Shown here in pieces: positions 2,364 through 57,199 of a stretch of 64,000 bases of DNA. The stretch covers positions 19,577-83,576 of IMG/VR virus record IMGVR_UViG_3300048999_000173; one strand, 5' to 3'. The notes under the pieces were generated by a model. The model made no database searches. It was not told the origin of the DNA and saw nothing but the letters and a program-made list of their open reading frames with translations. A program made the translations under genes and the position numbers. This DNA comes from a virus. Positions within the stretch are counted from its first letter, which is position 1, and every line of letters begins with the position of its first letter.

Positions 2364-3557
2364 ATGCTCTCCACAGTGCAGAACGCGGTCGAGCAACTGC
2401 CCGTACAGGCATGGGCCGTCCTGCTCGCCACCCTCACCCTCGTCTTCGGCTACCGCATCGCCCGCAAGACGACGCCGAACACCAAAACCGAGCCCGGCCG
2501 GGACAAGATCGAGCGGCGCACCCTCATCGGCTTCACCGGCATGGGCCTCGTCGCCCTCCTCGGCTTCGGCCTCTCCGCCAACACCAGCATCCGCTTCGCC
2601 GAAAAACGCCTCCACATGGAGGCCCCCTGGACCCTCACCATCGGCCTCGCCCTCGAAGGCATCGTCCTCGGACTCACGCTCTACTCCTGGGCCTTCGACG
2701 ACAAGGGCACCGCCCGCGCCGCCTACCTCCTCGTCCTCGCCCAGGCAGTCGGCGCCATCGAAGTCGTCCGCCAGGAACACGAAGACGCCGGCACCGCCCT
2801 CGTCCGCATCGTCGGCCCCGTCATGCTCGCCTACGGCCTCCACAAGCTCCTCGGGCTGGAAGCCAAGCTGGGGAAGCTGAAGATCACATCGGACGGCATG
2901 ATCGCCCGACTGTGGCGGGACCGCCTGAAGCGGCTCGAGAGCAAGCTCGGCATCGGATCCCGCGGCGCCGACGCCGAAGCCATCTCCCGCAGCAACGCCG
3001 CCGACAAGTTCGTCAACCTCAACTCCGTTGGGAAGCCCGCGCTCATGACCGACCGCATGTACCGGCGCGCGCTCGTGAAGGCCGGCCGGGCCGCCCTCCA
3101 CGGCCTCGACGGCTTCGAGCGGCAGATGGCCGAAGCCGTCCTCGTCGACCGGATCGCCTACGAGAAGGGCATGCAGAAGGGCGGTGACCACTTCGAGGTG
3201 GCCCTCATGCGGGGCGTGCGGTCGAACACCGGATCGCTGGAACTGGACGCGTCCTCTCCGGCTGCACTCGGCTTCCTGACCAGCGCGGCTATCGAAGCCG
3301 CACCCGCGAGCCGAGCCGAAGACGCACCCCAGCCGCACGACGACAAGCCGCAGCCGCGTTCGAACCCCGCCGCGACCGAAGCCGAGCGGAAGGCCCGCGC
3401 GTTCCGCGTCTACGCCGACCTTGGACAGCCCTCCCAGCGCGCCTTCATCAAGGTGTGGCGGGAGCGCGGATTCGGCGAGTCCGACCAGACCGTCCGCGAG
3501 CTCTACAACGAGATGCACGAGGCCTTCGAGAACGCCCGCAAGGGAGACACGGCCTGA
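2364..3557 (+). CDS. multi-pass membrane protein, SpdB/DUF2637-like plasmid spread protein
   Basis: About 5 hydrophobic segments then a soluble tail with C-terminal HTH-like end; upstream of the traB-like gene. Confidence 0.6.
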   Translation: MLSTVQNAVEQLPVQAWAVLLATLTLVFGYRIARKTTPNTKTEPGRDKIERRTLIGFTGMGLVALLGFGLSANTSIRFAEKRLHMEAPWTLTIGLALEGIVLGLTLYSWAFDDKGTARAAYLLVLAQAVGAIEVVRQEHEDAGTALVRIVGPVMLAYGLHKLLGLEAKLGKLKITSDGMIARLWRDRLKRLESKLGIGSRGADAEAISRSNAADKFVNLNSVGKPALMTDRMYRRALVKAGRAALHGLDGFERQMAEAVLVDRIAYEKGMQKGGDHFEVALMRGVRSNTGSLELDASSPAALGFLTSAAIEAAPASRAEDAPQPHDDKPQPRSNPAATEAERKARAFRVYADLGQPSQRAFIKVWRERGFGESDQTVRELYNEMHEAFENARKGDTA

Positions 3558-4069
3558 TGCGCCAGCCGACTACCGAACAGCGTCCGCAGGCCGCCCCCCG
3601 GCCTGCGGTGCCCCTGCACGTTCCCGCACCGCCGCGATCGGCCCCGGCCCCCCTCCCGGTACCGCCCGCCGCACCCGACTGGCCTTCGCGCTGGCACCTT
3701 CTCCTCCCCGCCGGCGTCCGCAACCAGATGGCCGCGCTCGGGCTGTGGCAGAACCCGGTACCCCTGTGCCCCTCCCTGCACCTCGAGCAGACCCTCGCCG
3801 TCCTCGAACGCTACGGCTGGGCCCGCAGCCTCGACTTTTCCCCCACCGGCCGCATGTGCATCCGCGGCTCCCAAACCCTCCTCGAGCGCACCGGGCACGT
3901 CACCCCCGCCGCGCGCGCGAGGGCCGTCGACTTCATGCAGCAAACCCTCCAGGAACACGGCTACCACCAGCCGTTCTTCGCCTGGAACGACCACCAGGAA
4001 CGCACCCTCACCCACGTCCGCAACCTGATCCTCACCTCCGCCCATGCCGCCCGATCCAACGGAGAATGA
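3557..4069 (+). CDS. hypothetical protein (DUF6197-like)
   Basis: LERYGWAR...MCIRG...AWND motif; TGATG coupling. Confidence 0.6.
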   Translation: MRQPTTEQRPQAAPRPAVPLHVPAPPRSAPAPLPVPPAAPDWPSRWHLLLPAGVRNQMAALGLWQNPVPLCPSLHLEQTLAVLERYGWARSLDFSPTGRMCIRGSQTLLERTGHVTPAARARAVDFMQQTLQEHGYHQPFFAWNDHQERTLTHVRNLILTSAHAARSNGE

Positions 4070-4782
4070 CCATGAACGAGTACAACGACCCCAACGCCGA
4101 CTTCAACGGCATCATCAACAACGCGTTCACCCCCAACCCGGCCACAAACCCGCAGGTCACACCCGGGCAGACCTACACCAGCCCGGCCGGCTTCTACACC
4201 GACACCCACACCGGCACGCACGGCCCCTACGGCCCGCCGCCCGCCCACCAGGCCCGCCCCGTCAAGACCGGCCTCACCCCCCGCGGGAAGGCCGCCCTCG
4301 CTATCGCCGCGACCATCTGCGCCGGCGGCGGCCTCCTCGGGTGGCAGCACTACGCCGCCGCCCAGGCGGCCAACCAGGTCAAGGCCCAGGAACTGCGGAT
4401 CGAGCAGCAGAAGCTCGCCATCGAGCAGCAGAAAGCCCTCGACAAGGCCACGCAGACCGCGCAGAAGACCCAGAGTGCGGCCGACGCGAACCGGCAGAAG
4501 AAGATCGACGCCTGTGTGCAGGCCAACCGCGGCCTGGTCGGCAAGCAGCTCGGCGCGACCCTCTCCTCCGTCATCCAGGACTGCCAGACCCAGTACCCGG
4601 CCACCGCCGGGACCGGCGACATGCAGGAGGCGGCGACGTCCAGCACCACCGGCGGCAGCGGAAACGCCACCGACATCCTCCTCGTCGGAGGTGCCGCCCT
4701 CGCCCTCGGTGTCGGATTCGCCGTCAGGCGCGCCACCCGCCCCGCACCGGCCCCCGTCTACACCGGATACCCCACCCACTGA
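4066..4782 (+). CDS. membrane protein, two TM segments flanking a coiled coil with a Cys pair (transfer module)
   Basis: TM AALAIAATICAGGGLLGW, Q/K coiled coil, C-terminal TM. Confidence 0.7.
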   Translation: MTMNEYNDPNADFNGIINNAFTPNPATNPQVTPGQTYTSPAGFYTDTHTGTHGPYGPPPAHQARPVKTGLTPRGKAALAIAATICAGGGLLGWQHYAAAQAANQVKAQELRIEQQKLAIEQQKALDKATQTAQKTQSAADANRQKKIDACVQANRGLVGKQLGATLSSVIQDCQTQYPATAGTGDMQEAATSSTTGGSGNATDILLVGGAALALGVGFAVRRATRPAPAPVYTGYPTH

Positions 4783-4913: not shown

Positions 4914-7079
4914 ATGGCGAGCGACACCGCCCCCGCCGCACCCGGCCCGGACGCCCCCGACATGCCCGCCCACGCCCCCCACCCGGCGACCGGAGCACCG
5001 GACGCCCCGACCCGCGGAGGCCTGGGCTGGCTCGCATCCGCCCTCCAGCCCGTCGACCCCGCCCGCCCCACCTTCGACCTCACCCCCACCCTGGGCGACA
5101 CCACCGCCGACCTGAACGGCATCGACCTCACCGCCCTCACCGGCGGGCCCGGCGGCGGCCCGTCCAGCGCCGCCTACCACGACGGCACCACCCCCCCCAC
5201 CGACACCACCGGCACGAACAGCGCCGGCGGCCAGGAGAAGAGCATCGTCCGCGCCTGGCTCCTCGCCGGCGCCGAACGCTGGCGCAAGGGCGCCGACGCC
5301 CGCAACAAGGCGTTGGACATCCAAAAGGCCAAGGCCACCGCCCTGCAGGTCAAGGAGTCCCGCACCGTCAACCGCTCCGAGAAGATCGTCGGAGGGGGAA
5401 CCAGCTCCGCCACCAGCGGCAAGACCGACGCCGGGAAGTCGAACACCAGCAAGACCAGCAACTCCGGCCCGGGCGGGGCGAAGAACGGCTCCGCCGGCGG
5501 TAAGAGCACAGGGTCCGGCGCTGGCTCGGGGGCCGGTGGCCGCGGTGGAGGATCCGGCACCGGACGAGGAAACGGGGCGGGTACGGGCGGCGGCCGCGGC
5601 GGCACCAGGGGCAGCGACGCCGGCACCAGCAAGGACCCGAAGACCAATCACGCCAAGGGCGCCGACCACACCAAGTCCCCCAGCCCCTCCAACAGCGGCG
5701 GGAAGCCCGGCAAGGACGGCCCGTCCGGCAGCCACGGCTCCTCCGGGAAGCTCGGCAAGGACACCGCCTCCCACAACGGCAGCGGGAAGAGCCCCAAGCA
5801 GCAGACCACCAGCACCTGCGGCGACGCGTCCGGCATCAGCATGACCAAGGACAAGAAGCCCAAGGCGCCCAAGGACACCAGCGGCGACACCACGGCGGCC
5901 GCCCCGAAGACGCCCAAGCCGTCACCCACGAAGAACCCGCCCCAACCGGGAAGCGGCACGCCGGGCCCCAAGGGCGGCCCGGGCGCGGGCGGGGGAGCGG
6001 GCGGCACCACTACACCCGGCGCGGGGACCGGCAAGCCCGTCGACATGAAGAAGAACCCCGACCTCAAGGGCGGCGACAAGACCAAGCCCAGCACCGACAC
6101 CACCGGCCGCACCGACCTCACGAAGAAGCCCAAGACCGACCCCAAGATGCCGAGGGCCGGCGAGCAGCAGACCACCGGGCCGACCGTCCGCACCCAGGCC
6201 ACCCGCGAAGCCGGATACCGCGACGGCACCCGCCTCGGCACCGCCGTCGCCCACGCCGGCGCCTACAAGGACGGGGTCAAGGACGGCTACCGCGACACCT
6301 CCGAGGCTGCCGCCCGCGAGAAGGACCGCCTCGACAAGGCCCACCAGAAGCACAAGCCGGGCGCCGCACCGCAGCCCGCCCCGGCACCCATACCGCCCAA
6401 GCCGACCGTTCCGCCGAAGCCCACCACACCACCCCCCACCCCCACAGCCACCCCCCGCCCGGGCCCCGCAGCAGCGCCCAAGCCGACCAAGCCCACCACC
6501 GTCCCCGACCCGCGTACCGCCCTGATGAAGCCCAAACCCAAGCCGAAGCCTGACCCCAAGGAGGCACCCGTGGCCGCCCCCAGCAGCGCCGACTACCACC
6601 CCCCGCAGCGACCAGCCGACACCCCGATCGGCGTCTCCCGCGTGGGCCAGACCCACGTCGTCCTGGACAGCGGACAGGTCATCTCCCGCGGCGAAGTCCG
6701 CAACCTCAAGGACTACGAACGGCGCTTGGACGAGAAGACCATCGCGATGCACAAACTCGCCGACCTGGCCAAAGCCCTCCAGGCGCACGCCCAGGACCAG
6801 AACAAGGAAGTCACCACCCTCCTCGAGCAGGCCCGCACCAAGTCCGTCGGCGCCACCCTCATCGGAAACCTGACCAGGCTCCAGGAACGCACGGCCCTCC
6901 AAGCCCACCAGGCAACCGAACTCCTCAAGCGGGCCGTTCGGGCAGCCGAGTCCACCACCGTCCTGCTCGCCAACGTGACCACCCGCTACGGCGGCATCTA
7001 CAAGGCCGTCTGCGACTCCCCACTCGAGATCCCCGGCGAACTCGACTTCTACGACGACAGGACGGCCACCAGTGTCTGA
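4914..7079 (+). CDS. large low-complexity Tra-like protein with helical C-terminal domain
   Basis: GGGAGG RBS then MASDTAP; G/K/P/T-rich middle; helical last ~170 aa. Confidence 0.7.
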   Translation: MASDTAPAAPGPDAPDMPAHAPHPATGAPDAPTRGGLGWLASALQPVDPARPTFDLTPTLGDTTADLNGIDLTALTGGPGGGPSSAAYHDGTTPPTDTTGTNSAGGQEKSIVRAWLLAGAERWRKGADARNKALDIQKAKATALQVKESRTVNRSEKIVGGGTSSATSGKTDAGKSNTSKTSNSGPGGAKNGSAGGKSTGSGAGSGAGGRGGGSGTGRGNGAGTGGGRGGTRGSDAGTSKDPKTNHAKGADHTKSPSPSNSGGKPGKDGPSGSHGSSGKLGKDTASHNGSGKSPKQQTTSTCGDASGISMTKDKKPKAPKDTSGDTTAAAPKTPKPSPTKNPPQPGSGTPGPKGGPGAGGGAGGTTTPGAGTGKPVDMKKNPDLKGGDKTKPSTDTTGRTDLTKKPKTDPKMPRAGEQQTTGPTVRTQATREAGYRDGTRLGTAVAHAGAYKDGVKDGYRDTSEAAAREKDRLDKAHQKHKPGAAPQPAPAPIPPKPTVPPKPTTPPPTPTATPRPGPAAAPKPTKPTTVPDPRTALMKPKPKPKPDPKEAPVAAPSSADYHPPQRPADTPIGVSRVGQTHVVLDSGQVISRGEVRNLKDYERRLDEKTIAMHKLADLAKALQAHAQDQNKEVTTLLEQARTKSVGATLIGNLTRLQERTALQAHQATELLKRAVRAAESTTVLLANVTTRYGGIYKAVCDSPLEIPGELDFYDDRTATSV

Positions 7080-7452
7080 CCTGACCAACAAGCAGCTCCA
7101 GGCCCGAACCATCGCGATTGCCAAGCAGGCCGCCCGCAGCAGCCAAGAGATCAACCAGGTGGCCTCGCTGTTCGCTGAGGAAGCCCGCGACACCCGCCGC
7201 ATCGTCAACATGATCGGCTCGAAGAAGGTCGACCCCGACACGGTGGCGGAGACGGAAGAACTCGCAAAGATCATCGACGGGCTGTCGGACGCCGCCCTCA
7301 CCTACGCCACCACCACCGAGGACACCTCCCGCAGCGCCGACTGGACCGCACAAACGGCCCGCACCGTCCACGACAACATCGGCGAACAGGTCAACCGCTC
7401 GCCGGCCCGCAACATCCACGACGTCCAACGCGAATGGCTCCAGCAGCAGTAA
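7072..7452 (+). CDS. small helical conjugal-transfer-associated protein
   Basis: 126 aa amphipathic helices, directly upstream of the FtsK ATPase. Confidence 0.7.
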   Translation: MSDLTNKQLQARTIAIAKQAARSSQEINQVASLFAEEARDTRRIVNMIGSKKVDPDTVAETEELAKIIDGLSDAALTYATTTEDTSRSADWTAQTARTVHDNIGEQVNRSPARNIHDVQREWLQQQ

Positions 7453-9832: not shown

Positions 9833-9954
9833 CCGCCCGCCCAGCGACCCAAGCGACTGAGCCCCCGACCACACCCGGCCGGGGGCCCAGTCGCGTCCGA
9901 TGGGGAGGGGGAAGGCGGCTCAGACAAACACCGAAACGTACGGCAGCATCAGAA

Positions 9955-10033
9955 GTGCGCGGCCCGGGAGCTGCTTATTCCTTGAGAGACGTCCCCGCGC
10001 CCCTCGCAGGAGAACATGGCCCGGGCCGCGCAC
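9955..10033. other. long stem-loop between convergent traB and lipoprotein genes
   Basis: Perfect 14-bp IR GTGCGCGGCCCGGG/CCCGGGCCGCGCAC. Confidence 0.6.
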
Positions 10034-10154
10034 CCCCTGCATATATGCGCCCCTCGCCGGGCAGCAGTACCCGCATACCCCCCCGGCATCCGAGCCCCGC
10101 AGCCCCGACCCAGTACCCCCAGTACCAGGTTGGGGCTGCGGCACACCCCCAACC

Positions 10155-10592
10155 TCACGCACCCGGATGCGACCGGAACCACGCCACCATCCGCTGCAAC
10201 GGCAACCCCACCGCCAGCATGTTCCCCCTCCCCGCCAGGTTGTCCCGACCGTAGTGATCGGCCTGCGCATCCGCCTGGCCCACGTACCCGATGGGCTCCG
10301 CATACACCGTGGCGTCCGCCGCCTTCATCGCATCCCGCACCCGGTCGGCCGCCGCCAGCTTCCGCGTCATGAACGCCTGACAGTCCGCCGCGTCCGTACA
10401 CCCCGGCGCCACCACCTCCTGATACGCCGCCAACGCCTCACGCGGCGACAACGCGGCCGCAGACGAGGCCGCGGCCGACACGGACGCAGACGACCCAGCG
10501 CCCGCCGTCTCGTCCCCGCCACTGCTCGAGCAGCCCGCCACCAACACCCCCACGACCACCGCACACACGGCCGCCGCCCCCCTCACACCCAT
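10155..10592 (-). CDS. lipoprotein
   Basis: Signal peptide with lipobox LVAG-C, S/A linker, Cys pair. Confidence 0.7.
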   Translation of the reverse strand: MGVRGAAAVCAVVVGVLVAGCSSSGGDETAGAGSSASVSAAASSAAALSPREALAAYQEVVAPGCTDAADCQAFMTRKLAAADRVRDAMKAADATVYAEPIGYVGQADAQADHYGRDNLAGRGNMLAVGLPLQRMVAWFRSHPGA

Positions 10593-10630
10593 ACGTCTCA
10601 TCCGCGCAGGATGACCCCACACCCCGGCCA

Positions 10631-10680
10631 GGGGGAACACACAGGCGGAAATCGGCGATCATTCGACACAGGCGCGGGGC
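10631..10680 (+). promoter_or_regulatory. late promoter-like motif upstream of terS
   Basis: GGGGGAACAC...CAGGCGCGGGGC, same spacing as the copy at 14851. Confidence 0.55.
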
Positions 10681-10714
10681 CGACAACCACACACCGAGCG
10701 GGAGCCCCACCGCC

Positions 10715-11272
10715 ATGGCCTGGTCGAAATACAAGCTGGACGAAGTCATCGTCCGCCGCACCAAACTCCTCGAGCTGCGCCGCCAAGGCGTCCGATACGA
10801 CGACGAGCGCATCGAGAAGCTCGGCTACAGCAGCCCCGGCGCCGCCCGCAAAGACCTCGCACGCGCCCTCGAAGCCCACCGCGACGAGGAAGCCGCCGAG
10901 GTCGGCATCTACCGGCAGCAGGAGAACGAACGCCTCGACGCCCTTCTCGAGGCCGTATGGTCGCGCGCCACCACCCTCTCACCCGTCCTCGATAAGGAAG
11001 GCGAGGTCATAGACCACGTCCTGGACGTGAAGGCCGTCGACACCGTGCTGCGCCTCATGGACCGCCGCGCCAAACTCAACGGCCTTGACATGCCCGTCAA
11101 GGCGGAACTGTCCGGGCCCAACGGAGGCGCCCTGAGGATCGGGCCGGCCGGAATCGATGAACTGAACAAGCTGATCAACATGGCTGGCGACCCCGACGCC
11201 GAAGACGACGCCCCGGTCGAAGACGAAGAACTGGAAGACGGCGACGTGGATGACGACGGCGACCACACCTGA
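10715..11272 (+). CDS. terminase small subunit
   Basis: N-terminal HTH (LELRRQGVRYDD..IEKLGYSS), RRAKLNGLDMPVKAELSGPNGG; overlaps terL. Confidence 0.8.
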   Translation: MAWSKYKLDEVIVRRTKLLELRRQGVRYDDERIEKLGYSSPGAARKDLARALEAHRDEEAAEVGIYRQQENERLDALLEAVWSRATTLSPVLDKEGEVIDHVLDVKAVDTVLRLMDRRAKLNGLDMPVKAELSGPNGGALRIGPAGIDELNKLINMAGDPDAEDDAPVEDEELEDGDVDDDGDHT

Positions 11273-12866
11273 CCAGTGGGACGGCCTCGAAGAACACGAA
11301 GTCGTCCAAGAGGCCGAAGCCCTCCTCCAACTCGTCGCCCGCTACCGGCGCCTCAACCGCGCCCAACGCCGCCGCATCGCCTTCCAGGCCAGCCCCGAAG
11401 TCCGCAGCGTCCTGGCCCAGGTCGAGTGCGACATGGCGCTCGAGCGATCCCCCGGCTCGATGGCCGCAGTCCTCACCGACGGACGCGAAAAGCAGGCCCG
11501 CCACCTCGACCTGATCGACCGAGTGTTCCGCGACATCGCCCGCGGCCACTCCCGCAAGGTCCTCATCACCATGCCCCCACGGCACGGCAAGTCCCGCCGC
11601 GCCGCCCGCTGGGCCCCCCTGTGGTTCCTGTCCCGGCACCCCGACCGCCGCGTAATGATCGCCTCCTACAGTGCCGACCTCGCCGACGACCACGGCCGGT
11701 GGATCCGCGACGCGATCGTCTCCTACGGCCCCCAACTCGGCCTCGCCCTCCACGCCGGATCCAAGGCCGCCAACCGCTTCGACCTCGCCGACCCCGAGAC
11801 CGGAGAACGCCTCGAAGGCGGCCTCGTCACCGCAGGCGTCGGCGGAGGCCTCACCGGCAAGGGCGCCCACCTCGCGATCGTCGACGACCCCATCAAGGAC
11901 GCCGCAGACGCCGAATCACCCACCATGCGCAAACGGCTGTGGGAGTGGTGGACATCCGTCCTCAACACCCGCGTCGAACCCGGCGGATCCATCATCGTCA
12001 TCCAGACCAGATGGCACGAAAAGGACCTCGCCGGCCGCATCCTCGAAGGCGAAGACGCCTCCGACTGGACCGTCATCGACCTGCCCGCGATCTGCGACAG
12101 CGAAGACGACCCCCTGGGCCGGGAGATCGGACAGCCGCTGTGGCCCATCCGATACGGCCTCAAAGCCCTCGAGAAGATCCGGCGCGCGGTCGGGGAACGC
12201 GTCTGGTGGTCCCTCTTCCAGCAGAAGCCACGCCCCCTCGAAGGCGGCGTGTGGAAGTGGCCATGGATCACCGACAACCGGATCAGTGCCGAGCGCTACC
12301 GGGCTGTCGACCTTTCGCGCACCGTCGTCGCCGTCGACCAGGCCGGAGGCGAGGGCGACACCCACGACGAGACCGGCATCATCGGCGCCGGCCGGACCAC
12401 CGACGGCAACATGTACGTCCTCGCCGACCGGTCGGCGAACATGGGCGCGGACACGTGGGGGCACGTAGCGTGCCGCCTGGCCATCGAGCTGAAGGCCGAC
12501 GCGTTCGTCGTCGAAGACAACTTCGGCGGCGACCAGTCCTCCCAGATCATCCGTCAGGCTTGGCGTGACCTGCAACGATCCGGGGAGACGGAGGGCCTCA
12601 TCATGCCCCTGATCATCCCCGTGCACGCCAAGCAGGGTAAGAAGCTTCGCGCCGAACCCATCGGCCAACTCGCTGCGCAGGCCCTCATCCACCACGTCGG
12701 CGAGTTCCCCCGCCTCGAAGGCCAGTTGGTCACCTGGATACCCGGCATGGATTCCCCGGACCGTATGGACGCCTACGTTCACGCCCTCACCGAACTTGCC
12801 GACCCTGCGCAAGAGGGCATCGGCGCTCAGCAGTATTCCGACCAGCGCCTCCGAGGCCGCCGCTGA
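11250..12866 (+). CDS. terL: terminase large subunit
   Basis: MPPRHGKS Walker A, IVDDPIKD Walker B, TRWH, nuclease VAVDQA...DETGII...SPDRMDA. Confidence 0.95.
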   Translation: MTTATTPDQWDGLEEHEVVQEAEALLQLVARYRRLNRAQRRRIAFQASPEVRSVLAQVECDMALERSPGSMAAVLTDGREKQARHLDLIDRVFRDIARGHSRKVLITMPPRHGKSRRAARWAPLWFLSRHPDRRVMIASYSADLADDHGRWIRDAIVSYGPQLGLALHAGSKAANRFDLADPETGERLEGGLVTAGVGGGLTGKGAHLAIVDDPIKDAADAESPTMRKRLWEWWTSVLNTRVEPGGSIIVIQTRWHEKDLAGRILEGEDASDWTVIDLPAICDSEDDPLGREIGQPLWPIRYGLKALEKIRRAVGERVWWSLFQQKPRPLEGGVWKWPWITDNRISAERYRAVDLSRTVVAVDQAGGEGDTHDETGIIGAGRTTDGNMYVLADRSANMGADTWGHVACRLAIELKADAFVVEDNFGGDQSSQIIRQAWRDLQRSGETEGLIMPLIIPVHAKQGKKLRAEPIGQLAAQALIHHVGEFPRLEGQLVTWIPGMDSPDRMDAYVHALTELADPAQEGIGAQQYSDQRLRGRR

Positions 12867-12935: not shown

Positions 12936-12956
12936 CACACGGTGAGGGAGCACGTA

Positions 12957-14867
12957 GTGGGCCTGCGCGAGGTCGTCATTCACGCCTGGTCGTGGCTGAA
13001 CTACAAGCCCGTCTACTCCGGCCACGACGGCGACGGCATGCCCAACCGGCGGGCCTTCCCCGAGTCCACCGCCATGTGGGTCCCCGAAGAGGACCAGAAA
13101 CGCCTCGCCGCCTACAAGCTCCTCGCCGCCTACGACAACAACCAGTCCGCGGAACTCTCCGAGGTGTCCGGCGACCTGCACGCCCGTGAGCGGCGCGAGT
13201 TCGGCGACCCCTCCATGTACGTGGAGACCGTCATGTCCCACGTCCTTGGCCGCGAGCAGACCATCACCGTGCCCGGCGCCGACCACGAGGGTGACACCCC
13301 CACCCCCGACGAGGCGATGGCCGCCCGCATTGAGGAACTCCTGCGGGAGTGGGCGGAGGACGAGCAGCTGGCCATGCGGGTCCAGCAGTGCGAACGCAAG
13401 GCTGTCAGCCTCGGCGACGGCGTCTACCGGGTCGCGTGGGAGCCCGGCCGTATGCGGCCCACCGTCCGCGTCCACGACCCCGGCTTCTACTTCCCCGTGC
13501 TGCCCGAAGACGGCGACGCCGGCGACTACCCCACCCGCGTCCACTTCGCGTGGGAACTCCCCGCCGACGAACGCCGCGGCCTGAAGGCGCGGCTGCGGCG
13601 CATCACCTACGAACTGGACTGGATCGGCCCCGCGACCGGCTCCGGCGTCGACGAGCAAGGCCGCGCCGTGCGCGCCCCGCTCCCGCCCGACGAACCCGCC
13701 CTGGACATGCCGGACAACGAGGTGCCGCCGCCCCCGATCACCCCCGGCGACGTGTACTACCCGGCCACCGGCGCCATCGCCCGCCAGTACCCGTGGAACG
13801 ACACCCCCTCCTACGTCACCTGCTACCTCACCGACGCCACCTGGCAGTTGGAGGACCTGAAGGGCGCCCCCGACGTCGATTCCCTCCCGCTGTCGTCGGC
13901 GACGTTCGCGACCCGCGCGGACGGAGAGGTCCTCGACCACCTCGACCTGATGATCGACTTCGTTCCGGTGGTCCACCTCCCCAACACCGTCCCCCCGGCA
14001 GAAGAGCACTGGGGGCAGAGCAGCCTCGCCAAGGTCCTGCAGATCTTCGACGAACTCACCTCGTCCGACACCGACTCCGCGAAAGCCTCCGCCACCACCG
14101 GTGCCCCCATGATCGGGCTGTGGGGCAAGGCCGCCGGCTCCAGCATGGAAGCCCACCAGGTCACACCGGGCATGCTCCTGAAACTCGGCGAGAACGGCGG
14201 TATGACCGCCCTCGACACCAGCAAGAACCTCGCCGAACTCCGCAACCACATCCACGACCTGTCCGACCGCGCCGCGAAGGTTGCCCGCCTGCCCGCCGTC
14301 GCGCTCGGCACCGTCGACCCCTCTCTCGTACCGTCCGGGTACGCCCTGGAGATCTCCCTCGGCCCGCTGGACGCCCTCATCGCCTCCATGCGGCTGGCCC
14401 GTGACCACAAGTACGCGCTGCTCCTGAAGATGGTGCAGCGCCTCTACCTGGCCGGACAGCACCCCGACTGGGCGGGCATCACGCCGATGCCCGCGCGCCT
14501 CGCGTTCGGCTCCTACAAGCCGACCGACAAGGCTGCCGTCCTCGAGCAGGTCACCACCGGCGTCGACAAGGGCGTCATCTCCCTGGAGACCGGCCTGAAA
14601 ATGCTCGAGGAGGCCGGCTTCCCCATCGACGACATCCCGGCGGAGATCGAACGCATCCAGTCCCGCCAGTTCGAAAAGGCCCGCACCCTCGCCGACGCCA
14701 CTGGAGACACCCAACTGGTCGGCGACTTCCTCGGGGTGAAGGTCAACGAACCCGACCCGGCGCCCGCACCACAACTCCCCGCCACACCCGGCGACCGGAA
14801 CTCGGCCGCGCCCGCTACAGCGGCAGCCGGACAGGCAGGGCAACAGGACGGGGGGAACACTCCGTGA
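12957..14867 (+). CDS. portal protein
   Basis: Follows terL; SLGDGVY, HWGQSSL, PSGYAL motifs typical of portals. Confidence 0.85.
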   Translation: MGLREVVIHAWSWLNYKPVYSGHDGDGMPNRRAFPESTAMWVPEEDQKRLAAYKLLAAYDNNQSAELSEVSGDLHARERREFGDPSMYVETVMSHVLGREQTITVPGADHEGDTPTPDEAMAARIEELLREWAEDEQLAMRVQQCERKAVSLGDGVYRVAWEPGRMRPTVRVHDPGFYFPVLPEDGDAGDYPTRVHFAWELPADERRGLKARLRRITYELDWIGPATGSGVDEQGRAVRAPLPPDEPALDMPDNEVPPPPITPGDVYYPATGAIARQYPWNDTPSYVTCYLTDATWQLEDLKGAPDVDSLPLSSATFATRADGEVLDHLDLMIDFVPVVHLPNTVPPAEEHWGQSSLAKVLQIFDELTSSDTDSAKASATTGAPMIGLWGKAAGSSMEAHQVTPGMLLKLGENGGMTALDTSKNLAELRNHIHDLSDRAAKVARLPAVALGTVDPSLVPSGYALEISLGPLDALIASMRLARDHKYALLLKMVQRLYLAGQHPDWAGITPMPARLAFGSYKPTDKAAVLEQVTTGVDKGVISLETGLKMLEEAGFPIDDIPAEIERIQSRQFEKARTLADATGDTQLVGDFLGVKVNEPDPAPAPQLPATPGDRNSAAPATAAAGQAGQQDGGNTP

Positions 14868-14904
14868 GATCTGTGCTGGACTTGATCTCAGGCGCGGGGC
14901 CTGA
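14851..14904 (+). promoter_or_regulatory. late promoter-like motif upstream of scaffold
   Basis: GGGGGAACAC...GATCTCAGGCGCGGGGCCTGA. Confidence 0.55.
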
Positions 14905-14929
14905 ACTGTCCTTGGGAGGACTGTCCCCG

Positions 14930-15721
14930 ATGCGTCGCCCCGCGCAGCACCACCTCGGCCCCATCGCTCGCACCTGGGCCCACCCCTACCACGGGGTGGC
15001 AGGCCTCGCCGTGTTCTACAACGACGGCGGCCAGAACCCGGCGGTGCCCCCGGTGGTACCCCCGGCTACTGACCCGGCCGCCGGAGACCCCCCCAAGCCG
15101 GGACCGCCCGCCGCCCGCACCTTCACCCAGGCCGAAGTCGAAGCACTCGCCGCCCGGGAGAAGGCTCAGGGCAAGCGGTCGGCCGCCAAGGAGTTCGCCG
15201 AGAAGCACGGCTTCAGCACCATCGAGGACGCTGAGGCGTTCATCGCCACCGCCCGCAAGGCGCAAGAGGACGCCCTGTCTGAGCAGGAGCGCGCCCAGAA
15301 GCAGCTCGAGGACGACCGTGCCCGCGTGGAGTCCGAACGGACCACGCTGGCCGCTGAACGCCGCACCCTGCGACGTGAGCAGGCCCTTGCCCGCCTTGGG
15401 GCCGTCGACATCACCGACGAGCAGGGGCAGGTCGTCCCCAACCTGGCGGACGCGCTCGCCATGCTGGACCGGGACCTCAGCGCAACCCCCGACGCCGACG
15501 AACAGACGGTCACAGAAGCCGCCACCAGGCTGAAAGCCCGCCGCCCCGAACTCTTCGGCGCACCTGCCACCGTTCCGGCCGCCGGGCAGATGCCGCCCGC
15601 GCCGGGCGGGGCCCCAGCCGGCGGCCCGCCCCCGCGGCAGACGCCCGCAGGGAAGCCCGGAGACCGCGGACGGGAGATGGCACGCCTGCGCGGCCACGTC
15701 CGCGACAGCAAAGCCGCATAG
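14930..15721 (+). CDS. capsid scaffolding protein
   Basis: RTFTQAEVE motif, coiled coil, RPELF, Pro-rich ends; GGGAGGA RBS. Confidence 0.8.
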   Translation: MRRPAQHHLGPIARTWAHPYHGVAGLAVFYNDGGQNPAVPPVVPPATDPAAGDPPKPGPPAARTFTQAEVEALAAREKAQGKRSAAKEFAEKHGFSTIEDAEAFIATARKAQEDALSEQERAQKQLEDDRARVESERTTLAAERRTLRREQALARLGAVDITDEQGQVVPNLADALAMLDRDLSATPDADEQTVTEAATRLKARRPELFGAPATVPAAGQMPPAPGGAPAGGPPPRQTPAGKPGDRGREMARLRGHVRDSKAA

Positions 15722-15833
15722 ACCACCCCGGCCCACCCCGGGCCGGGTTAATGGGACCACGCCCTCTCCACGTGGACGCGCACCCCCGGGGTGCCGCTGT
15801 CACCGCACCCCCGCAGTTCACCAGGAGAAGGCC

Positions 15834-16583: not shown

Positions 16584-16602
16584 GTAGAAGGAGCCGACCA
16601 CC

Positions 16603-17985: not shown

Positions 17986-17986
17986 T

Positions 17987-18039
17987 CGGATGCGGGCCCG
18001 CCCCTGTGGTGGGGGCGCCAACCGGCGGGCCCGCATCCG
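17987..18039 (+). terminator. 16-bp stem hairpin after the capsid genes
   Basis: CGGATGCGGGCCCGCC / GGCGGGCCCGCATCCG. Confidence 0.65.
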
Positions 18040-18071
18040 CTATCCCCTCATCCGCCCCTGAGGAGGACCAG

Positions 18072-21149: not shown

Positions 21150-21286
21150 CTAGCTCAGGACGTTAGACCGCACCGCGGCGGGACCCCACGCGGACGCCAC
21201 CACCACAGGTGGCCGCCACCCATACACCACGTGTAAGGGGCCGGGTCCCGAAAGGATCGCACTGGCCCCGGGACCAAGGGGCCCCC

Positions 21287-31343: not shown

Positions 31344-31344
31344 C

Positions 31345-50718: not shown

Positions 50719-51200
50719 CCGCCCAGGGCGAGGGCATCCTCGCCTGGCTGGACGGTGCCGTCACCCGGCGCGAGCGGGTCGCCCAGGCTGCCGCCGCATT
50801 GCAGGCTGATCCGGAGAACGGTTGGGGCATCGTCGACGACTCCGGCTACGCCGTACCCAGCAAGCGGCGCACGATCTCGCCGCACATCGGCATCACTCAC
50901 GAGCCGGAGTCTGCGGAGCACATCGTCCTGAACAATCCGGCCGACGTCCTGCGCCGCTGCGCTGCCGACCGGAAGACCCTGGCTCTCTACGCCGAGACAG
51001 TGGCGATCCGCGACAGGAGTGCCGCTTCCCTTCAGACCGCGCAGGACCGTGGCGACATGCCCGACCCGTGTGTGCTGGACGATTGGAGCCGAGCCAACCG
51101 CGAAACGGCCTTCATGCTGCCCCTGATCCAGATCCTCGCTGACGGCTACGGCTGGACGGCAGGCCAGACCCCACCCAGTGAGGGAGATCAGGTGACTTAG
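50715..51200 (+). CDS. DUF6221-like protein (second copy)
   Basis: ILAWLD, HIVLNNPADVLRRCAADRK, LADGYG. Confidence 0.7.
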   Translation: MTAQGEGILAWLDGAVTRRERVAQAAAALQADPENGWGIVDDSGYAVPSKRRTISPHIGITHEPESAEHIVLNNPADVLRRCAADRKTLALYAETVAIRDRSAASLQTAQDRGDMPDPCVLDDWSRANRETAFMLPLIQILADGYGWTAGQTPPSEGDQVT

Positions 51201-51414
51201 CCAGTTTCGGCGGGAGATTCCTCGACCGCCTGGCCGCTTCCCCGTTCGGTGCGCCAACACCGTCCGGGCCTCTGCGGCCCTCATGCAACGGCTCAGCCTG
51301 CCAGCTGAGCTAAGGCCCGCTGGGCGCCAACCCAAGCGAGCGACCTACAGGTTCGCCAGAACCACCTTCACCACCGAGCGGGCTTTTTCATGTCCGCAGG
51401 ACGGCAGGTACATA

Positions 51415-52815
51415 GTGCAGTACGCGACACCCTCTTGTCAGCTTGACGCATCCGATTCGCGGCATTCGGTAGGCAAATCACCCTCCACCGATGTCGATGT
51501 ATCGACTCCCAGCACCCTCCGGATCGCCGCCGCACGGCAGTGGCTGCACGCCACCACGGGCCGGATCGCGACCTGCGCCCACTCCTGGATGACCGCCGTC
51601 CACTGGATCACCACCTCCGGCCTCTACACCCCCTCCCGCGCCCACGGCCCGAAGTGGGGCACCACCACCATCGCGGTCGCGCAGGAGATCGCCGCCCTCA
51701 AGGAGTGCCGACCCGGAATCGCCTACCTCGCCCGCAAGTTGCGGCTGTCCGAGCGGACGGTGCAGTACCACCTGGACATGCTCCGCGAGGCCGGGCTCCT
51801 CGTGTACCGGTCCAAGGGCACCCGCCTCTCCGGTGTCGGCGGCCGGGCGTCCGTGTACGAGCGGACCATCCCCAGCCGGTTCGACGAGGAGCTCGGGATC
51901 CGCACCGTCGGGGAGGGTGCAACGCGCCGCCCGGTCGGGATCGCCGAACGCGGACGGAAGTTGATCGGGAAGCTGGCGAAGAAGGCCGCCCGGAAGACCC
52001 GCCGCCGCCCGTCCCGCACCCGGGCCTCGCAGCGGGGGCGTTGCACCCCAATGCAGGTGGGTACCTCAACTGTTTCCTCTACCGCTCTCACCTGCTTTCC
52101 CTCTGAGAGCAAGCTCGCAAGCGGGGCAGCAGAAGCCAGCCCGGGGAAGAAGACCAAGCGCGGGCCGCGAACCCTCAACCGTGTCGGCCGCCGACACCAG
52201 CTGGCCCGCGAACTGATCACGCTGGTGCCGTGGTTGAAGGGCGCCTCCGTCCCCCGCATCGCGTGGATCATCCGGCATGTCGCTGACGCCGGGTGGACAG
52301 CCCTCGAGGTGCAGGCCATCGCGGAGAACGAGCGCCCCATCGGCGCCGACCAGGTCCACCGGCCGTCCGGGCTTCTCGCCAACCGCCTCGGCAGCCTCCA
52401 CTTGCTGTACACCACCCCCGAACGCCGGAAGACGGCCGTGCTGGCGTGGCAGGAGTCCCGCATCCAGGAGAAGGCCCGGCACGCCGACACTGCGGGCTAC
52501 AGCAGCTTCGACGGCGGCCCCAAGAGCCTTGCAGCCCGGCGGGCCATGGGCGAAGCCTTCGCCGCGATCACCAACCGTCTCCACGGCGACGCCGTACTCG
52601 TCGACTGCACCCCGATCGCGTTTGAGGACCTGAGCCGTGACGAAGTCGCCGCCATGCGCCGCGACGCCATGCAGGACCCGGGCCTGGTCCTCGCCGCTAT
52701 CGACCTCATTGGCGAGCAGCAGACCCGCCGCCTGTACACCCACCGCCTCGTCGACCAGACCCTCACCCTCGAGCGGATCGCCGCCCGCAACACCACCTAC
52801 GACCCCGCCTTCTGA
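51415..52815 (+). CDS. replication initiator-like protein with N-terminal winged HTH
   Basis: CRPGIAYLARKLRLSERTVQYHLDMLREAGLL, ASVY; start uncertain; near DciA-like and par genes. Confidence 0.65.
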   Translation: MQYATPSCQLDASDSRHSVGKSPSTDVDVSTPSTLRIAAARQWLHATTGRIATCAHSWMTAVHWITTSGLYTPSRAHGPKWGTTTIAVAQEIAALKECRPGIAYLARKLRLSERTVQYHLDMLREAGLLVYRSKGTRLSGVGGRASVYERTIPSRFDEELGIRTVGEGATRRPVGIAERGRKLIGKLAKKAARKTRRRPSRTRASQRGRCTPMQVGTSTVSSTALTCFPSESKLASGAAEASPGKKTKRGPRTLNRVGRRHQLARELITLVPWLKGASVPRIAWIIRHVADAGWTALEVQAIAENERPIGADQVHRPSGLLANRLGSLHLLYTTPERRKTAVLAWQESRIQEKARHADTAGYSSFDGGPKSLAARRAMGEAFAAITNRLHGDAVLVDCTPIAFEDLSRDEVAAMRRDAMQDPGLVLAAIDLIGEQQTRRLYTHRLVDQTLTLERIAARNTTYDPAF

Positions 52816-52829: not shown

Positions 52830-53282
52830 ATGACCAACCCGACCGAACCTCACTCCTGCACGAACTGCGACGGCATCGATCCAGACACCTGCCTGACGAA
52901 CCCCAACAGGCCGCCGGAGCAGTGCCCCCGATCCGAAGCAGACGGATACGGCCACCAGTGCCAGAAGCCAGCCGGGCACAACCTGTGCACCTTCGAGGAA
53001 GAGCAGCGCGCCGCCCAAGAACCGCCTGCCGTCACCCATGCGCGAGCCGTACAGGAGATCCGCGCCGCCGCCCACCACCTCTACGCCGACGCAGGCATTC
53101 GTGTCCTGTCCGCCCTCGATGACGCACAGGTCTGCGACGACCCACACCCCGAAAACGGCGACCTGTGCAACCGCCGCCACGGGCACTTCGGGTTCCACCG
53201 CCACGTCATGGCTAACGGCGTCTACACATCGTGGGTTGGCAACGTCCCCGGTTTTCCGGGTGAGGAGGACGGACGTGGCTGA
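52830..53282 (+). CDS. Cys/His-rich hypothetical protein
   Basis: CTNCDGIDPDTC, HQCQKPAGH, CNRRHGHFGFH. Confidence 0.7.
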   Translation: MTNPTEPHSCTNCDGIDPDTCLTNPNRPPEQCPRSEADGYGHQCQKPAGHNLCTFEEEQRAAQEPPAVTHARAVQEIRAAAHHLYADAGIRVLSALDDAQVCDDPHPENGDLCNRRHGHFGFHRHVMANGVYTSWVGNVPGFPGEEDGRG

Positions 53283-54066
53283 CACCCCGCAGCTGTCCGG
53301 CCGCGACCTCGCCCGGCAAGCCCTCGCCGCCTACAAGGCCACCGCCCGCACCGCCCCCACCAACACCCCGGCCAAGACCCGACGGAAGAAAACCCTGCGC
53401 GCTGGCTCCGGCCGGGACCCCATCACCTTCGGCGCCGCCATCGCCGGACTCACCGGAGACCTCCCCCTCGAAGCCGGACTCGCCGGCGGCGACATCATCA
53501 ACCAGTGGCCCACCCTCTGCCCGCAGTACGCCGGCCGCGTGCAGCCCGTCTCCTACGACGAACGCACCGGGCGCCTCGACCTGCGGCCCGGATCCCACTC
53601 CTACGCCGGGCAACTCCGCCTCCTGGGCGGCCAGCTCGCCAAGCAGATCAACGACAAGCTGGGCCGCCCCGTCGTCCGTACGATCCGTGTCCTTCCCGTC
53701 GGCAACATCGCCCCGGCCGGGCCCGCAGAGCCCATAGCCCAGCAGCCGCAGCCTGAGACGCCCGTACGAACCCGCGCGGACGGATGCCCCGGCTACCAAG
53801 ACGCACTGGCCGTCGTCCTCGAGCACCAGCCCGAACGAAAGGCCGTAGACCCGTACGTGGAGCACGCCATGCGCCGCCAGGAGGCCGCCCTCCGCGCCGG
53901 ACGGCCGCCCGAGACCGAGCACCGCGACGCCATCTGGGCCCAGGACGACGCCGAACGGAAAGCGGGCCCGGCGCCGGGCAGCATGGCCGCATCCGAAGCC
54001 GCCGCCCGCGCGGTCGCCCGCCAGAACCGCGCCGCCCGGGCCCCGCGCCGCGCCTTCGATGTGTGA
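53275..54066 (+). CDS. DciA (DUF721)-family helicase-loader-like protein
   Basis: SGRDLARQAL, GRDP, IINQWP...VQPVSY..GRLDL...SYAGQLRLL...LAKQINDKLG..VVRTIRV. Confidence 0.75.
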   Translation: MADTPQLSGRDLARQALAAYKATARTAPTNTPAKTRRKKTLRAGSGRDPITFGAAIAGLTGDLPLEAGLAGGDIINQWPTLCPQYAGRVQPVSYDERTGRLDLRPGSHSYAGQLRLLGGQLAKQINDKLGRPVVRTIRVLPVGNIAPAGPAEPIAQQPQPETPVRTRADGCPGYQDALAVVLEHQPERKAVDPYVEHAMRRQEAALRAGRPPETEHRDAIWAQDDAERKAGPAPGSMAASEAAARAVARQNRAARAPRRAFDV

Positions 54067-55166: not shown

Positions 55167-56045
55167 TTACCCCAGGCCGCCTGCCAGCTCCTCGATCAGC
55201 TCACGCACAGCGCTCTCCAGCTGCTCAGCCTCCCGTCGCGCCCGGGCTGGATCCCGCTCCGCCAGCTCACGGATCCGCGCGACCGCCCGCAGTGACTCAC
55301 TGACCGACACTGCCGTCTTTCGTGTCGGCTTTGCCTCGGACGGCCCGGACACCTCCTTTGGAGGGGCGTAACCGAGGAAGTTCGCCGCCTGCATCAGCGC
55401 CGTGTCCGTGACGTTGCCGTGCCGGGCCGCTTCCAGCCACGTCTCACGGACCGGGTCCACGCCGTGGGTGTCGAGTATCGGGACCAGGACCCGCAGGGGA
55501 CGTTCCTTCAGCTCCTGGGTGGTGATGTCCTCGAGGACCTGAGCGACCGGAGTCACCCGGATGATGTTGTTCGCCTGGTGCTTTTTGATGCCGAACCGGG
55601 CTTCGGCGAGATCCCCGAACGTGTCGTGCCCTGCGACCTTGTGGAGTTCCTCTTCCTTCATCGCCCGCAGCCGCAGACCCAGGCCGATCAGCCTCTGCTG
55701 GTCGGCACGTTCGTGGTTGGCGCGGGCCGCGTACTGAACGGCGAGAATGCCGCGGGAGTAGAACTCCAGCCGCTCGGACGGATCTGCACTGTCCGGCTCG
55801 GTGAATTCCGGCATCGGCAGGTAGCCGGCCGCCGCGCGCGCAGGCGCCACGGGCGCATCGTCGGCCGCCCGTTCAGCCTGCACCGGGAGCGGCGCTGCCA
55901 CCGGCTGAACGGGGGGTGCCGATGCAGCGGCCTGCTGCTCTCGCCGGGCGCGCTCCGCCTCTTCCCACTTCCGCAGTTCGTCCTCGCGGGATGTGTCCCC
56001 GCCCTGGCCGACCACCGGGATGACGGGTGGTTCCTTCCTGCTCAC
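55167..56045 (-). CDS. partition partner protein (non-canonical ParB)
   Basis: Coupled to parA; GLRLRAMKEEELHKVAGHDTFGDLAEARFGIKKHQANNII. Confidence 0.7.
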   Translation of the reverse strand: MSRKEPPVIPVVGQGGDTSREDELRKWEEAERARREQQAAASAPPVQPVAAPLPVQAERAADDAPVAPARAAAGYLPMPEFTEPDSADPSERLEFYSRGILAVQYAARANHERADQQRLIGLGLRLRAMKEEELHKVAGHDTFGDLAEARFGIKKHQANNIIRVTPVAQVLEDITTQELKERPLRVLVPILDTHGVDPVRETWLEAARHGNVTDTALMQAANFLGYAPPKEVSGPSEAKPTRKTAVSVSESLRAVARIRELAERDPARARREAEQLESAVRELIEELAGGLG

Positions 56046-57199
56046 GCCGCCAGCTCCTTCGCCAGGGACCGCATCACCTGCGCCTGACCAGAGTCAGGAG
56101 CGTGCTCAAGGAGAGGGATCTGGTAGTCGGACGACTCCCGCCCCTCCACCGCGTCCTTCAGCGTGGCCAGCACGCCCGGAGTAGTGAGACCGTTCCAGCC
56201 GTCGTAGAAGCTGCGGGTACCGACACCCTTGCGCGCGTCGTAGGCGTTGACGACGAACCCGAGCTGGTCGACCACCGCTCCGGTCAGCCGGGAGTGCGTA
56301 CCGATCTGCTCGTTCAGCATCTCGTACGCGTCGAACGAGGACCGGTCGGACCAGACAGGGATGAGGATCCCGGAGTGGTCGATCAGCTCGCCGGGACGGC
56401 GCTGCACGTAGTTGATGGCGAGGTCTATGGCCAGACCCAGGTTCGGCGGCCCGTCCAGGACGATGACGTCGTAGCCCTCCTCGAGCGGGGCGATCGCACG
56501 CGCCAGGCAGGTGTCCCGGCCGACCTGGAGCAGGGCAAGCTTGGCGTCCATGAGGAAGGCGTCCTTGGACGCGGGCAGGATGTGCAGGCGGCCCCCGAAC
56601 CGTTCCTGGGGGAGCGCAACCAGGGAGCGGGCCAGGTGCTTGTCCGCCTCACCCAGCATGTGCTCGAGGAGACTGTTGGCGCCCTTGGGCAGGCCTGGGA
56701 TCTGGAGGCGGCTGGTGAGGTGGCCCTGCGGGTCGTAGTCGACGAGGAGGACACGCTGGCCGGCTTCCGCCATCGCCTGGGCGAGCCCGGCCGCGACGAA
56801 CGTCTTGCCGACGCCGCCCTTCTGATTGCCCACCAGGATCCGCTTCACCGGCTGCGACACCAGCCGCTGGGAGGGCGAGGGGTGCAACTGCAGCCAGTGG
56901 ACGATGGCCTGCGCCATGCCCTGCACCTTGGTGATCCCGCGGAGTTCGCAGTCCTGCGTGAACCGTCCGGGCAGCCCGGGGGCGAGGAACACCCCCCACG
57001 ACTTCGAACCCCTGGTGTCGATTGCCTCGAAGACCGTGTCGCCGGTGTCGGTCTCGAGCCACAGGGCAACTGCGTTGGATGCGGCGTCCTGCATGTTCAG
57101 TCCGTGCTCGGCAGCCCGGATGCGGAGGTCTCTGCGTAGCTCCGGGGTCAGATTGACGAGCAGTTTTTCGCGCGCATCGTCGGCGCTCGGGTTGGTCAT
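56042..57199 (-). CDS. parA: ParA ATPase with N-terminal tandem RHH-like extension
   Basis: NQKGGVGKT, LLVDYDPQG, VIVLDGPPNLG. Confidence 0.9.
   Translation of the reverse strand: MTNPSADDAREKLLVNLTPELRRDLRIRAAEHGLNMQDAASNAVALWLETDTGDTVFEAIDTRGSKSWGVFLAPGLPGRFTQDCELRGITKVQGMAQAIVHWLQLHPSPSQRLVSQPVKRILVGNQKGGVGKTFVAAGLAQAMAEAGQRVLLVDYDPQGHLTSRLQIPGLPKGANSLLEHMLGEADKHLARSLVALPQERFGGRLHILPASKDAFLMDAKLALLQVGRDTCLARAIAPLEEGYDVIVLDGPPNLGLAIDLAINYVQRRPGELIDHSGILIPVWSDRSSFDAYEMLNEQIGTHSRLTGAVVDQLGFVVNAYDARKGVGTRSFYDGWNGLTTPGVLATLKDAVEGRESSDYQIPLLEHAPDSGQAQVMRSLAKELAA

Follow-up and report, generated by a model that had tools for sequence, protein, structure and literature searches.

Streptomyces plasmid-phages have been described as elements that propagate and conjugate as episomes and that also make infective particles (PMC4170104). 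For pZL12, conjugal transfer has been attributed to a tra locus in papers that include PMC4170104, and pSLE1 has been described as a circular plasmid of 86 kb that resembles pZL12 and carries ParAB as well as phage genes (PMC4487206). A paper from 2020 called pZL12 a singleton without close relatives (PMC7157519). We analyzed a window of 64,000 nt that forms the end (bases 19577-83576) of one virus contig of 83,576 bp from a soil metagenome (IMG/VR record IMGVR_UViG_3300048999_000173). In this window, a virion and lysis gene block of the pZL12 type lies next to a five-gene cassette (g044-g048) whose last gene, g048, encodes a predicted DNA translocase. Positions refer to the window unless another sequence is named.

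A preliminary description of the window had proposed an intact siphovirus that also carries TraB-type conjugation and ParA-type plasmid maintenance, and that spreads by virions and by mating while being kept as an episome. Our analysis supports this proposal: all three gene sets are there, seem to be intact and keep their synteny with pZL12. For pZL12-type plasmid-phages such a three-way lifestyle is in print already, and this part of the result is a confirmation, not a discovery. The new points are a different, plasmid-derived tra cassette and evidence that it occupies an exchangeable slot. Taken as a whole, the contig is probably the near-complete genome of a temperate siphovirus of Streptomyces that belongs to the pZL12 plasmid-phage family and is equipped with virion genes, a plasmid maintenance set and the five-gene translocase cassette.

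The translocase gene and its cassette

Genes were called with our own GC3/GC2 scoring, which gave 118 genes (g001-g118) over the contig (G+C 69%, zero N). A mechanical list of open reading frames (ORFs) was discarded as uninformative (69% GC yields 258 ORFs of at least 100 aa), and a first GC3 filter was dropped as too strict. In a megablast search, phage ZL12/pZL12 was the only phage relative, and 35 Streptomyces plasmids matched at the DNA level. Forty-three of the 118 called proteins matched pZL12 (GQ919031) in collinear order, the whole virion block included, and the amino acid identity across the collinear virion/lysis block was 43-80%. In both elements, an FtsK-like translocase gene (71c in pZL12) is located directly upstream of the terminase genes. 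The cassettes around that gene differ: 72c-70c in pZL12 correspond in position to the five genes g044-g048 here, with no BLAST match between them. The original pZL12 paper (Zhong et al. 2010, J Bacteriol 192:3747) is said to describe a three-gene tra locus, plaques and P1-like random ends; none of this is used as support here.

The preliminary description had placed an FtsK/TraB translocase beside the virion genes, and the motifs, fold and homology of g048 bear this out. The protein carries a Walker A motif (GVTGSGKG) at residue 400 and a Walker B motif (LIFDE) at residue 488. Its AlphaFold2 model (mean predicted local distance difference test score, pLDDT, 86.6) consists of N-terminal helices (residues 11-143), the ATPase and a C-terminal winged helix. 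A single segment of the helical N-terminal region was above the strict hydropathy threshold, and the C-terminus forms a helix-helix-helix-strand-strand unit (residues 690-757, pLDDT >88). The top Foldseek matches of the model were the FtsK motor domain and the FtsK-like conjugation coupling protein TcpA (E ~1e-10). At the sequence level, a PDB search with g048 gave nothing significant (best E 0.071), and only weak P-loop matches were found in Pfam, NCBIfam and PHROGs; pZL12.71c has no Pfam match.

An exhaustive search for g048 homologues returned 268 representatives at E ≤ 1e-3, and hundreds of homologues were found on contigs of about 90 kb. Relatives were present on 143 Streptomyces/Kitasatospora plasmids (full length in 62) and in no other phage record. 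When 68 relatives were aligned, Walker A residues G400, G405 and K406 and Walker B residue E492 were invariant in all 68. FtsK_SpoIIIE was matched by 32 of these sequences (E < 0.001), FtsK_gamma by six and TrwB_AAD_bind by five, and several matched winged-helix families (MarR_2 and HTH_IclR were matched among the relatives). An extra FtsK-gamma domain was found in six of 120 close homologues among the matches listed.

A link to a transfer protein named from experiments is given by the S. coelicolor plasmid SCP2, whose TraA is annotated "major plasmid transfer protein": g048 was 29% identical to it over 246 aa (E 1.3e-14), and the g048 family profile matched first TraX (8e-7) and then TraA (1.6e-89) on SCP2, collinearly. 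The profile also aligned end to end with pZL12.71c (E 1.4e-15, 13-sequence set), a protein to which g048 has no BLAST match. Because the two genes share their position and align end to end with the profile, g048 and pZL12.71c are, by this evidence, distant homologues that occupy the same slot. Relaxase, TrwC and VirB4 families gave no matches at E ≤ 1 in a six-frame search of the contig (92% complete); this absence agrees with the relaxase-free transfer mode of Streptomyces, as that mode requires.

The cassette as a whole has its counterparts on plasmids. Homologues of g044-g048 lie in the same order and orientation on pSCL2 of S. clavuligerus (four genes) and on the 62-kb NZ_CP109248.1 of S. 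albidoflavus (five genes), with 31-51% identity, and the 20-kb stretches fetched from these two plasmids contain no annotated phage genes. Both differ from the present element in being linear plasmids, and pSCL2 has been described with terminal inverted repeats and tap-tpg (PMC8743545). We found no transfer experiments with the pSCL2 or NZ_CP109248.1 cassettes in the literature searched. The layout also resembles the SCP2 transfer region (AL645771), where a Gly-rich protein of ~710 aa (SCP2.23c) is followed by the small TraB and then by the translocase. In size, composition and position, g046 resembles both SCP2.23c (710 aa) and pZL12.72c (766 aa), and the 775 aa of g048 compare with 291 aa of TraX plus 478 aa of TraA, in the same profile order. 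There are also differences: SCP2 is a 31-kb plasmid without phage genes, its translocase is annotated as two ORFs, g046 has no detectable similarity to SCP2.23c, and g047 gave no sequence match to SCP2 TraB. Judged by homology and gene order, the tra cassette g044-g048 is plasmid-derived, is shared with phage-free plasmids in an SCP2-like layout, and is not the cassette of pZL12.

The preliminary description had also mentioned Spd-like membrane proteins near the translocase. The membrane part of this claim stands, with predicted hydrophobic segments in g043 (up to five), g045 (two) and g049 (one); the Spd part is the weakest item, and no family match was found for it. The backbone protein g043, which flanks the cassette, had no match in Pfam, NCBIfam or PHROGs, and a language-model lead from g043 to the SpdB families remained sub-threshold (scores 0.87-0.89).

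From the end of g048 to the start of the putative small terminase gene (terS) there are 883 bp. This spacer contains inverted repeats at 9955-10033 and 10097-10141, and the DNA at 10530-11130 is 73% identical to pZL12. A promoter and terminator scan of positions 1-12000 performed no better than on shuffles, and Rfam gave no match. Between the translocase and terminase genes, a restriction endonuclease gene is present in NZ_CP107756.1 (5452-6111 of the fetched stretch) and an HNH endonuclease gene in pCQ3 (10792-11679 of the fetched stretch). Given these inserted endonuclease genes of the relatives, the spacer therefore would also be a site of gene insertion. We sought cis-acting sites (clt, iterons) by repeat scans of four non-coding regions and by a whole-contig k-mer scan, and the par palindromes described below were the sole yield. 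An 8-mer with four copies in 300 bp inside g048 was rejected as a clt candidate and attributed to chance (29 copies contig-wide).

The translocase slot in the pZL12 family

The capsid gene was found on 34 Streptomyces/Kitasatospora plasmids, 33 of which were 84.8-94.1 kb long and one 152 kb. pCQ3, pCQ4, pSLE1 and ~30 further plasmids of 85-94 kb carry the same capsid family (44-90% identity), and they have the translocase gene placed upstream of terminase, portal and capsid. For 25 of these 34 plasmids the translocase could be assigned to a type; the matches covered were 60 of the 143 records with g048 relatives and, for the full-length relatives, 60 of 62. The g048-type was the most frequent (18 plasmids among the matches listed); the translocase of pSLE1 from S. 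leeuwenhoekii is of this type (46% identity), as is that of the 89.7-kb plasmid of S. ambofaciens ATCC 23877. The pZL12.71c-type was present in three plasmids. Two plasmids (NZ_CP107756.1 and NZ_CP032230.1) had an SCP2-TraA-type translocase, 49% identical to SCP2 traX/traA, and the 760-aa protein of NZ_CP107756.1 matched the g048 family profile with E 8e-95. The remaining two typed plasmids had the pCQ3/pCQ4-type: the annotation of both plasmids names traA and traB at this locus, the latter as "plasmid transfer protein TraB" (676 aa), which matched the profile with E ~5e-62 and had no pairwise BLAST match to the other lineages. Nine of the 34 plasmids were left untyped among the matches listed, including NZ_CP054917.1, which had a weak FtsK-like match only. 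By these comparisons, the g043-type gene and terS delimit a replaceable slot, which has been filled by at least four mutually divergent translocase lineages.

The partition module was swapped likewise. The window has a 388-aa ParA with g106, and its par genes had no match in pZL12. In pZL12 and NZ_CP107756.1, a short ParA is instead paired with a protein of the ParB/Spo0J type; in pZL12 these are a 219-aa ParA and a 380-aa ParB, and the module of the window is inverted relative to it.

In addition, we observed plasmids of 88-102 kb that carry a pZL12-type (NZ_CP109332.1, NZ_CP108705.1 and NZ_CP109440.1) or g048-type (NZ_CP109578.1, NZ_CP046906.1 and NZ_CP108209.1) translocase and that were absent from the capsid search at E ≤ 1e-10. 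Perhaps these six are related plasmid-phages whose head module differs.

The junction near 10 kb, which the preliminary description had raised as a possible misassembly, is not one: it is present in complete circular plasmids from isolates. Single megablast places in such plasmids span the translocase gene together with the terminase and major capsid genes, and the order of translocase and terminase is the same in pZL12, pCQ3, pCQ4 and NZ_CP107756.1. The literature we searched held nothing on a family-wide translocase slot or on pSCL2-type cassettes.

Table 1. Features of the window, with position, strand and the match or property on which each label rests.
Feature	Position	Strand	Evidence or remark
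g043, multi-pass membrane protein, backbone gene flanking the tra cassette	2289..3557	+	70-73% aa identity to pZL12.73c
g044 and g045 (membrane protein), first two cassette genes	3608..4782	+	g044 DUF6197, 5.7e-16; collinear homologues on linear plasmids pSCL2/NZ_CP109248.1, 31-51% identity
g046, 721-aa Gly/Ala/Thr/Pro-rich protein with conserved C-terminal domain	4914..7079	+	C-terminal 127 aa 46% identical to linear-plasmid homologue
g047, 126-aa helical protein, positional counterpart of SCP2 TraB (137 aa)	7072..7452	+	37-39% identity to collinear genes of pSCL2/NZ_CP109248.1
g048, predicted FtsK-fold dsDNA translocase of the Streptomyces Tra/TraB kind, 775 aa	7505..9832	+	motifs, AlphaFold2 model, Foldseek, profile
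Spacer between translocase and putative terS, candidate site of clt, pac or late promoter	9833..10714		weak minus-strand ORF g049, hairpins
g050 (putative small terminase) and g051 (large terminase)	10715..12866	+	g050 by position only; g051 Terminase_6N 4.9e-12
Portal g052, scaffold g053, head decoration g054, major capsid g055	12942..17649	+	PHROG 3.6e-17, 5e-17, 4e-24 and 6e-48, respectively
Head-tail connector genes g056-g063, major tail g064, g065-g066 in tail chaperone position	17656..23122	+	g064 PHROG 3.7e-33
Tape measure g067 (1747 aa), Dit g068, minor tail g069-g070, fibre g071	23162..33444	+	PHROGs 5e-113, 5e-33, 4e-78, 4e-61 and 5e-20
Lysis genes: peptidase g073, endolysin g074, holin g075	33899..36434	+	PHROG 1.7e-16, 6.8e-34 and 3.6e-27
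g086, Cre-like tyrosine recombinase	40985..42025	+	Phage_integrase 1.4e-12; 83% identical to pZL12.36c
Conserved stretch upstream of g100, candidate origin or replication-control region	51162..51444		78.7% identical over 291 nt to pZL12 13243-12957
g100, winged helix-turn-helix (wHTH) initiator-like protein	51589..52815	+	PHROG "replication initiation protein" 1.8e-6; 29% identical to pZL12.20c
g102, DciA-family protein (helicase-loader family)	53236..54066	+	DciA 1e-7, above cut-off; 46% identical to pZL12.18c; adjoins g100
Two perfect 23-bp palindromes, GGTGGTGACCA-N-TGGTCACCACC, candidate parS centromere	55068-55090 and 55112-55134		in the 91-bp gap after g106
parA g107 (388 aa) and downstream g106 (292 aa), 4-bp overlap	55167..57208	-	g107 AAA_31 1.6e-24, PHROG ParA-like 2e-32

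Virion genes, plasmid maintenance and circularity

The virion and lysis block (10715-36434) was entirely on the + strand and had no broken frames in our gene call, and its PHROG and Pfam matches (Table 1) uphold the earlier claim of an intact siphovirus set. The terminase proteins g050 and g051 were 66% and 60% identical to pZL12.68c and pZL12.67c, respectively, and the genes at 17656..23122 showed 43-79% identity to pZL12.62c-52c with the order kept. The tape measure is long and the tail-tube protein has no true sheath beside it, both of which agree with a siphovirus. The "sheath" PHROG matches were confined to a C-terminal domain common to the decoration and tail proteins: head decoration g054 (15834-16583) and major tail g064 (21287-22093) share this domain and have the same PHROG matches. 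The 3′ part of the tail gene g064 matched the pZL12 decoration gene at the DNA level. The shared domain is probably Ig-like, although no Ig family was matched.

The maintenance genes lie in the right-hand part of the window. Both parA (g107, 56042-57208, - strand) and the parS-like palindromes named in the preliminary description hold up, the latter as two perfect copies where none was found in any of 100 shuffles; they are candidate parS sites. From its position alone, g106 is presumed to be the centromere-binding partner of ParA. The initiator claim holds in part: the PHROG match of g100, its similarity to pZL12.20c and its DciA-family neighbor speak for it, whereas its HTH matches were sub-threshold. 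The pZL12 homologue of g102, pZL12.18c, is annotated "Tra3-like", which looks like a misnomer. Upstream of g100, 244 nt of the 291-nt conserved stretch were non-coding in our gene call. Because this DNA is 79% identical to pZL12 while the adjoining proteins are only 29% identical, its conservation suggests an origin or an RNA-based replication-control element.

The Cre-like character of the recombinase g086 was borne out by PDB sequence matches: of 18 matches, 17 were to Cre or to Tre, which derives from it, and these aligned over the full length (best E 1.2e-8, P1 Cre). In total, five of the seven items listed in the preliminary description are confirmed as solid, and two (Spd and initiator) are soft. 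The comparison with Escherichia coli phage P1 extends to the logic of an extrachromosomal prophage, with a long ParA, a partner gene and a centromere, and a Cre-related recombinase. P1 differs in being a myovirus of enterobacteria; the sequence relation is limited to the recombinase and ParA superfamilies, and no lox-like site was found here. To our knowledge, P1 has no conjugation genes.

Other genes were observed around this set. A PIN-domain protein (42018-42974, - strand) adjoins the recombinase gene. Two DNA methyltransferases (C5 and N6/N4) are encoded at 47285-48481 (+ strand) and in the left arm of the contig (13439-14185, - strand); these probably serve anti-restriction or stability. 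The left arm, outside the window, also contains several HTH genes, and between these lie genes for an IrrE/ImmA-type M78 peptidase (14791-15300) and a 400-aa HTH_31 and TPR regulator (17641-18843), which are candidates for a protease-controlled lysis-lysogeny switch.

The contig is classed as "linear" in the IMG/VR record, without end repeats and with a CheckV completeness of 92%; pZL12 is a 90.4-kb circle, whereas the present contig is incomplete at 83.6 kb. When we examined the circularity of the contig, as the preliminary description had suggested, no exact terminal overlap, terminal repeat or terminal inverted repeat was found on it. The gene order, in turn, leaves the right end of the contig and resumes at its left end, as on circular pZL12 and circular NZ_CP107756.1, and a related viral contig shows the same wrap across its ends. 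Exactly at the contig break, the relatives hold 3.9-5.7 kb of additional genes (e.g., RusA and SSB), and RusA/SSB-type genes were absent among the scanned end and left-arm genes of the contig. Given the wrapped gene order, the relatives' extra genes at the break and the 92% completeness, the contig is most simply read as a circular element of ~90 kb whose assembly has a gap at the break.

A public soil-metagenome run carried 98% of the sampled words from the right-hand 8 kb of the contig, and window positions 52001-64000 were covered in the source soil run by Logan contig pieces of identical sequence, with an even depth of ~17. Diverged relatives of this region were present in three further runs. 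The many "joints" in the run contig pieces over 52001-64000 were disregarded, as they had short sides and came from other strains or organisms, and so were runs with only a small share of the sampled words. The preliminary description had named chromosomal integration, with att sites separating a prophage from an independent AICE, as a finding that would contradict it. We found no chromosomal flanks, att-type context or tRNA genes on the contig, and no chromosomal genes among ~80 genes scanned against families. Over its whole length, the contig is collinear with circular plasmids.

Proposed lifestyle and its alternatives

In the model that we propose for this temperate siphovirus, the prophage would replicate as a low-copy circular plasmid, which ParA and g106 would partition at the palindromes, and the Cre-like g086 would resolve multimers or cyclize packaged DNA. 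The g048 protein would form a membrane-anchored ring, recognize a cis site via its C-terminal winged helix and pump unprocessed double-stranded plasmid DNA into a contacting hypha, with neither a relaxase nor a type IV secretion apparatus. After induction, a T4-type terminase would package the DNA into virions and the host would be lysed.

Several observations weigh against this model. The g048 protein scored under the Pfam FtsK_SpoIIIE cut-off (15.7 vs. 24 bits), did not match this family at E 0.01, and scored far under all NCBIfam cut-offs. The translocase tested in pZL12 belongs to a different lineage, so that its function transfers to g048 by family and position only, and the literature searched contained no experiments on this element or on any g048-type cassette. 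Repeat and k-mer scans found no convincing clt-like repeat cluster at or near g048. Membership in a Spd family was not shown: Pfam (in a set without SpdB models), NCBIfam and PHROGs gave none, and DUF2637 had zero matches. On the maintenance side, g106 has no ParB signature and had no family match in library searches, the initiator label of g100 rests on weak matches (HTH/wHTH sub-threshold, PHROG 1.8e-6), and no convincing lox-like site was found near g086 (39400-45600 scanned). All gene calls depend on the GC3 heuristic. Finally, with a linear contig that lacks a terminal repeat, is 92% complete and misses the relatives' extra genes at its break, circularity and completeness are unproven.

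Concerning the purpose of the cassette, we give limited credence to the following tentative reading, in which the translocase slot beside the packaging genes is a selected, integral part of how the family lives in a mycelial host. Spread over long range would be the task of the virions; within and from one mycelium to another, the prophage-plasmid would be moved silently by a TraB-type pump. Captures from circular (SCP2-like) and linear (pSCL2-like) conjugative plasmids would have replaced the cassette repeatedly, with its function kept. The slot might also have regulation or a cis site (clt/pac) in common with the terminase genes next to it.

It is rather improbable that the cassette serves mainly vertical or intramycelial maintenance, with the plasmid being pumped across hyphal cross-walls and into spore compartments. 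General knowledge of Streptomyces conjugation lends this idea some weight, since proteins of this kind are regarded as the driver of spreading inside the recipient mycelium, and so do the FtsK-fold motor with its membrane region and the finding that every family member examined keeps a translocase gene at the same site. However, papers state that pZL12 is transferred conjugally via its tra locus, and the cassette is common to SCP2-like and linear plasmids; moreover, the intramycelial and conjugal roles are not mutually exclusive.

We consider it quite unlikely that the element is a plasmid with a decaying or domesticated prophage, whose virions are no longer infectious and in which only plasmid functions count. 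Each virion and lysis gene is an uninterrupted ORF, with the size order of pZL12, and the title of the pZL12 paper mentions a lytic phage cycle. The public records of the family are filed as plasmids, and the SSB and RusA genes of the relatives' break region were not found on the 92% complete contig, but an assembly gap is the simplest account of these missing genes. An artefact or chromosomal mosaic, be it a prophage beside a separate actinomycete integrative and conjugative element or a chimeric metagenome assembly, is barely credible: this is a soil-metagenome contig without end repeats, but the gene order is identical in complete circular plasmids of cultured isolates and wraps over the contig ends as in circular relatives, neither tRNA nor chromosomal genes were seen among those scanned, and the right-hand 12 kb is covered evenly by identical pieces from the source run.

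For the pZL12 plasmid-phage family with its translocase slot, these results first concern family size: pZL12 was a "singleton" in 2020, and at least 34 capsid-bearing relatives are in public plasmid records now. A large survey of phage-plasmids screened for conjugation with CONJscan, and its main text never mentions Streptomyces (PMC7969092). In PLSDB, the MOB-suite labels were "non-mobilizable" for 35 of 35 DNA-level relatives, and the classical conjugative plasmid SCP2 received this label too. MOB-suite typing is blind to TraB-type transfer in Streptomyces, and surveys may therefore count too few phage-plasmids that have a second horizontal route. The presence of different translocase cassettes at a single fixed locus amounts to a natural experiment in module exchange between plasmids and phages. 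If the slot reading is true, these elements would be a lasting link through which genes pass between plasmids and phages of Streptomyces, and this link would be invisible to standard mobility typing.

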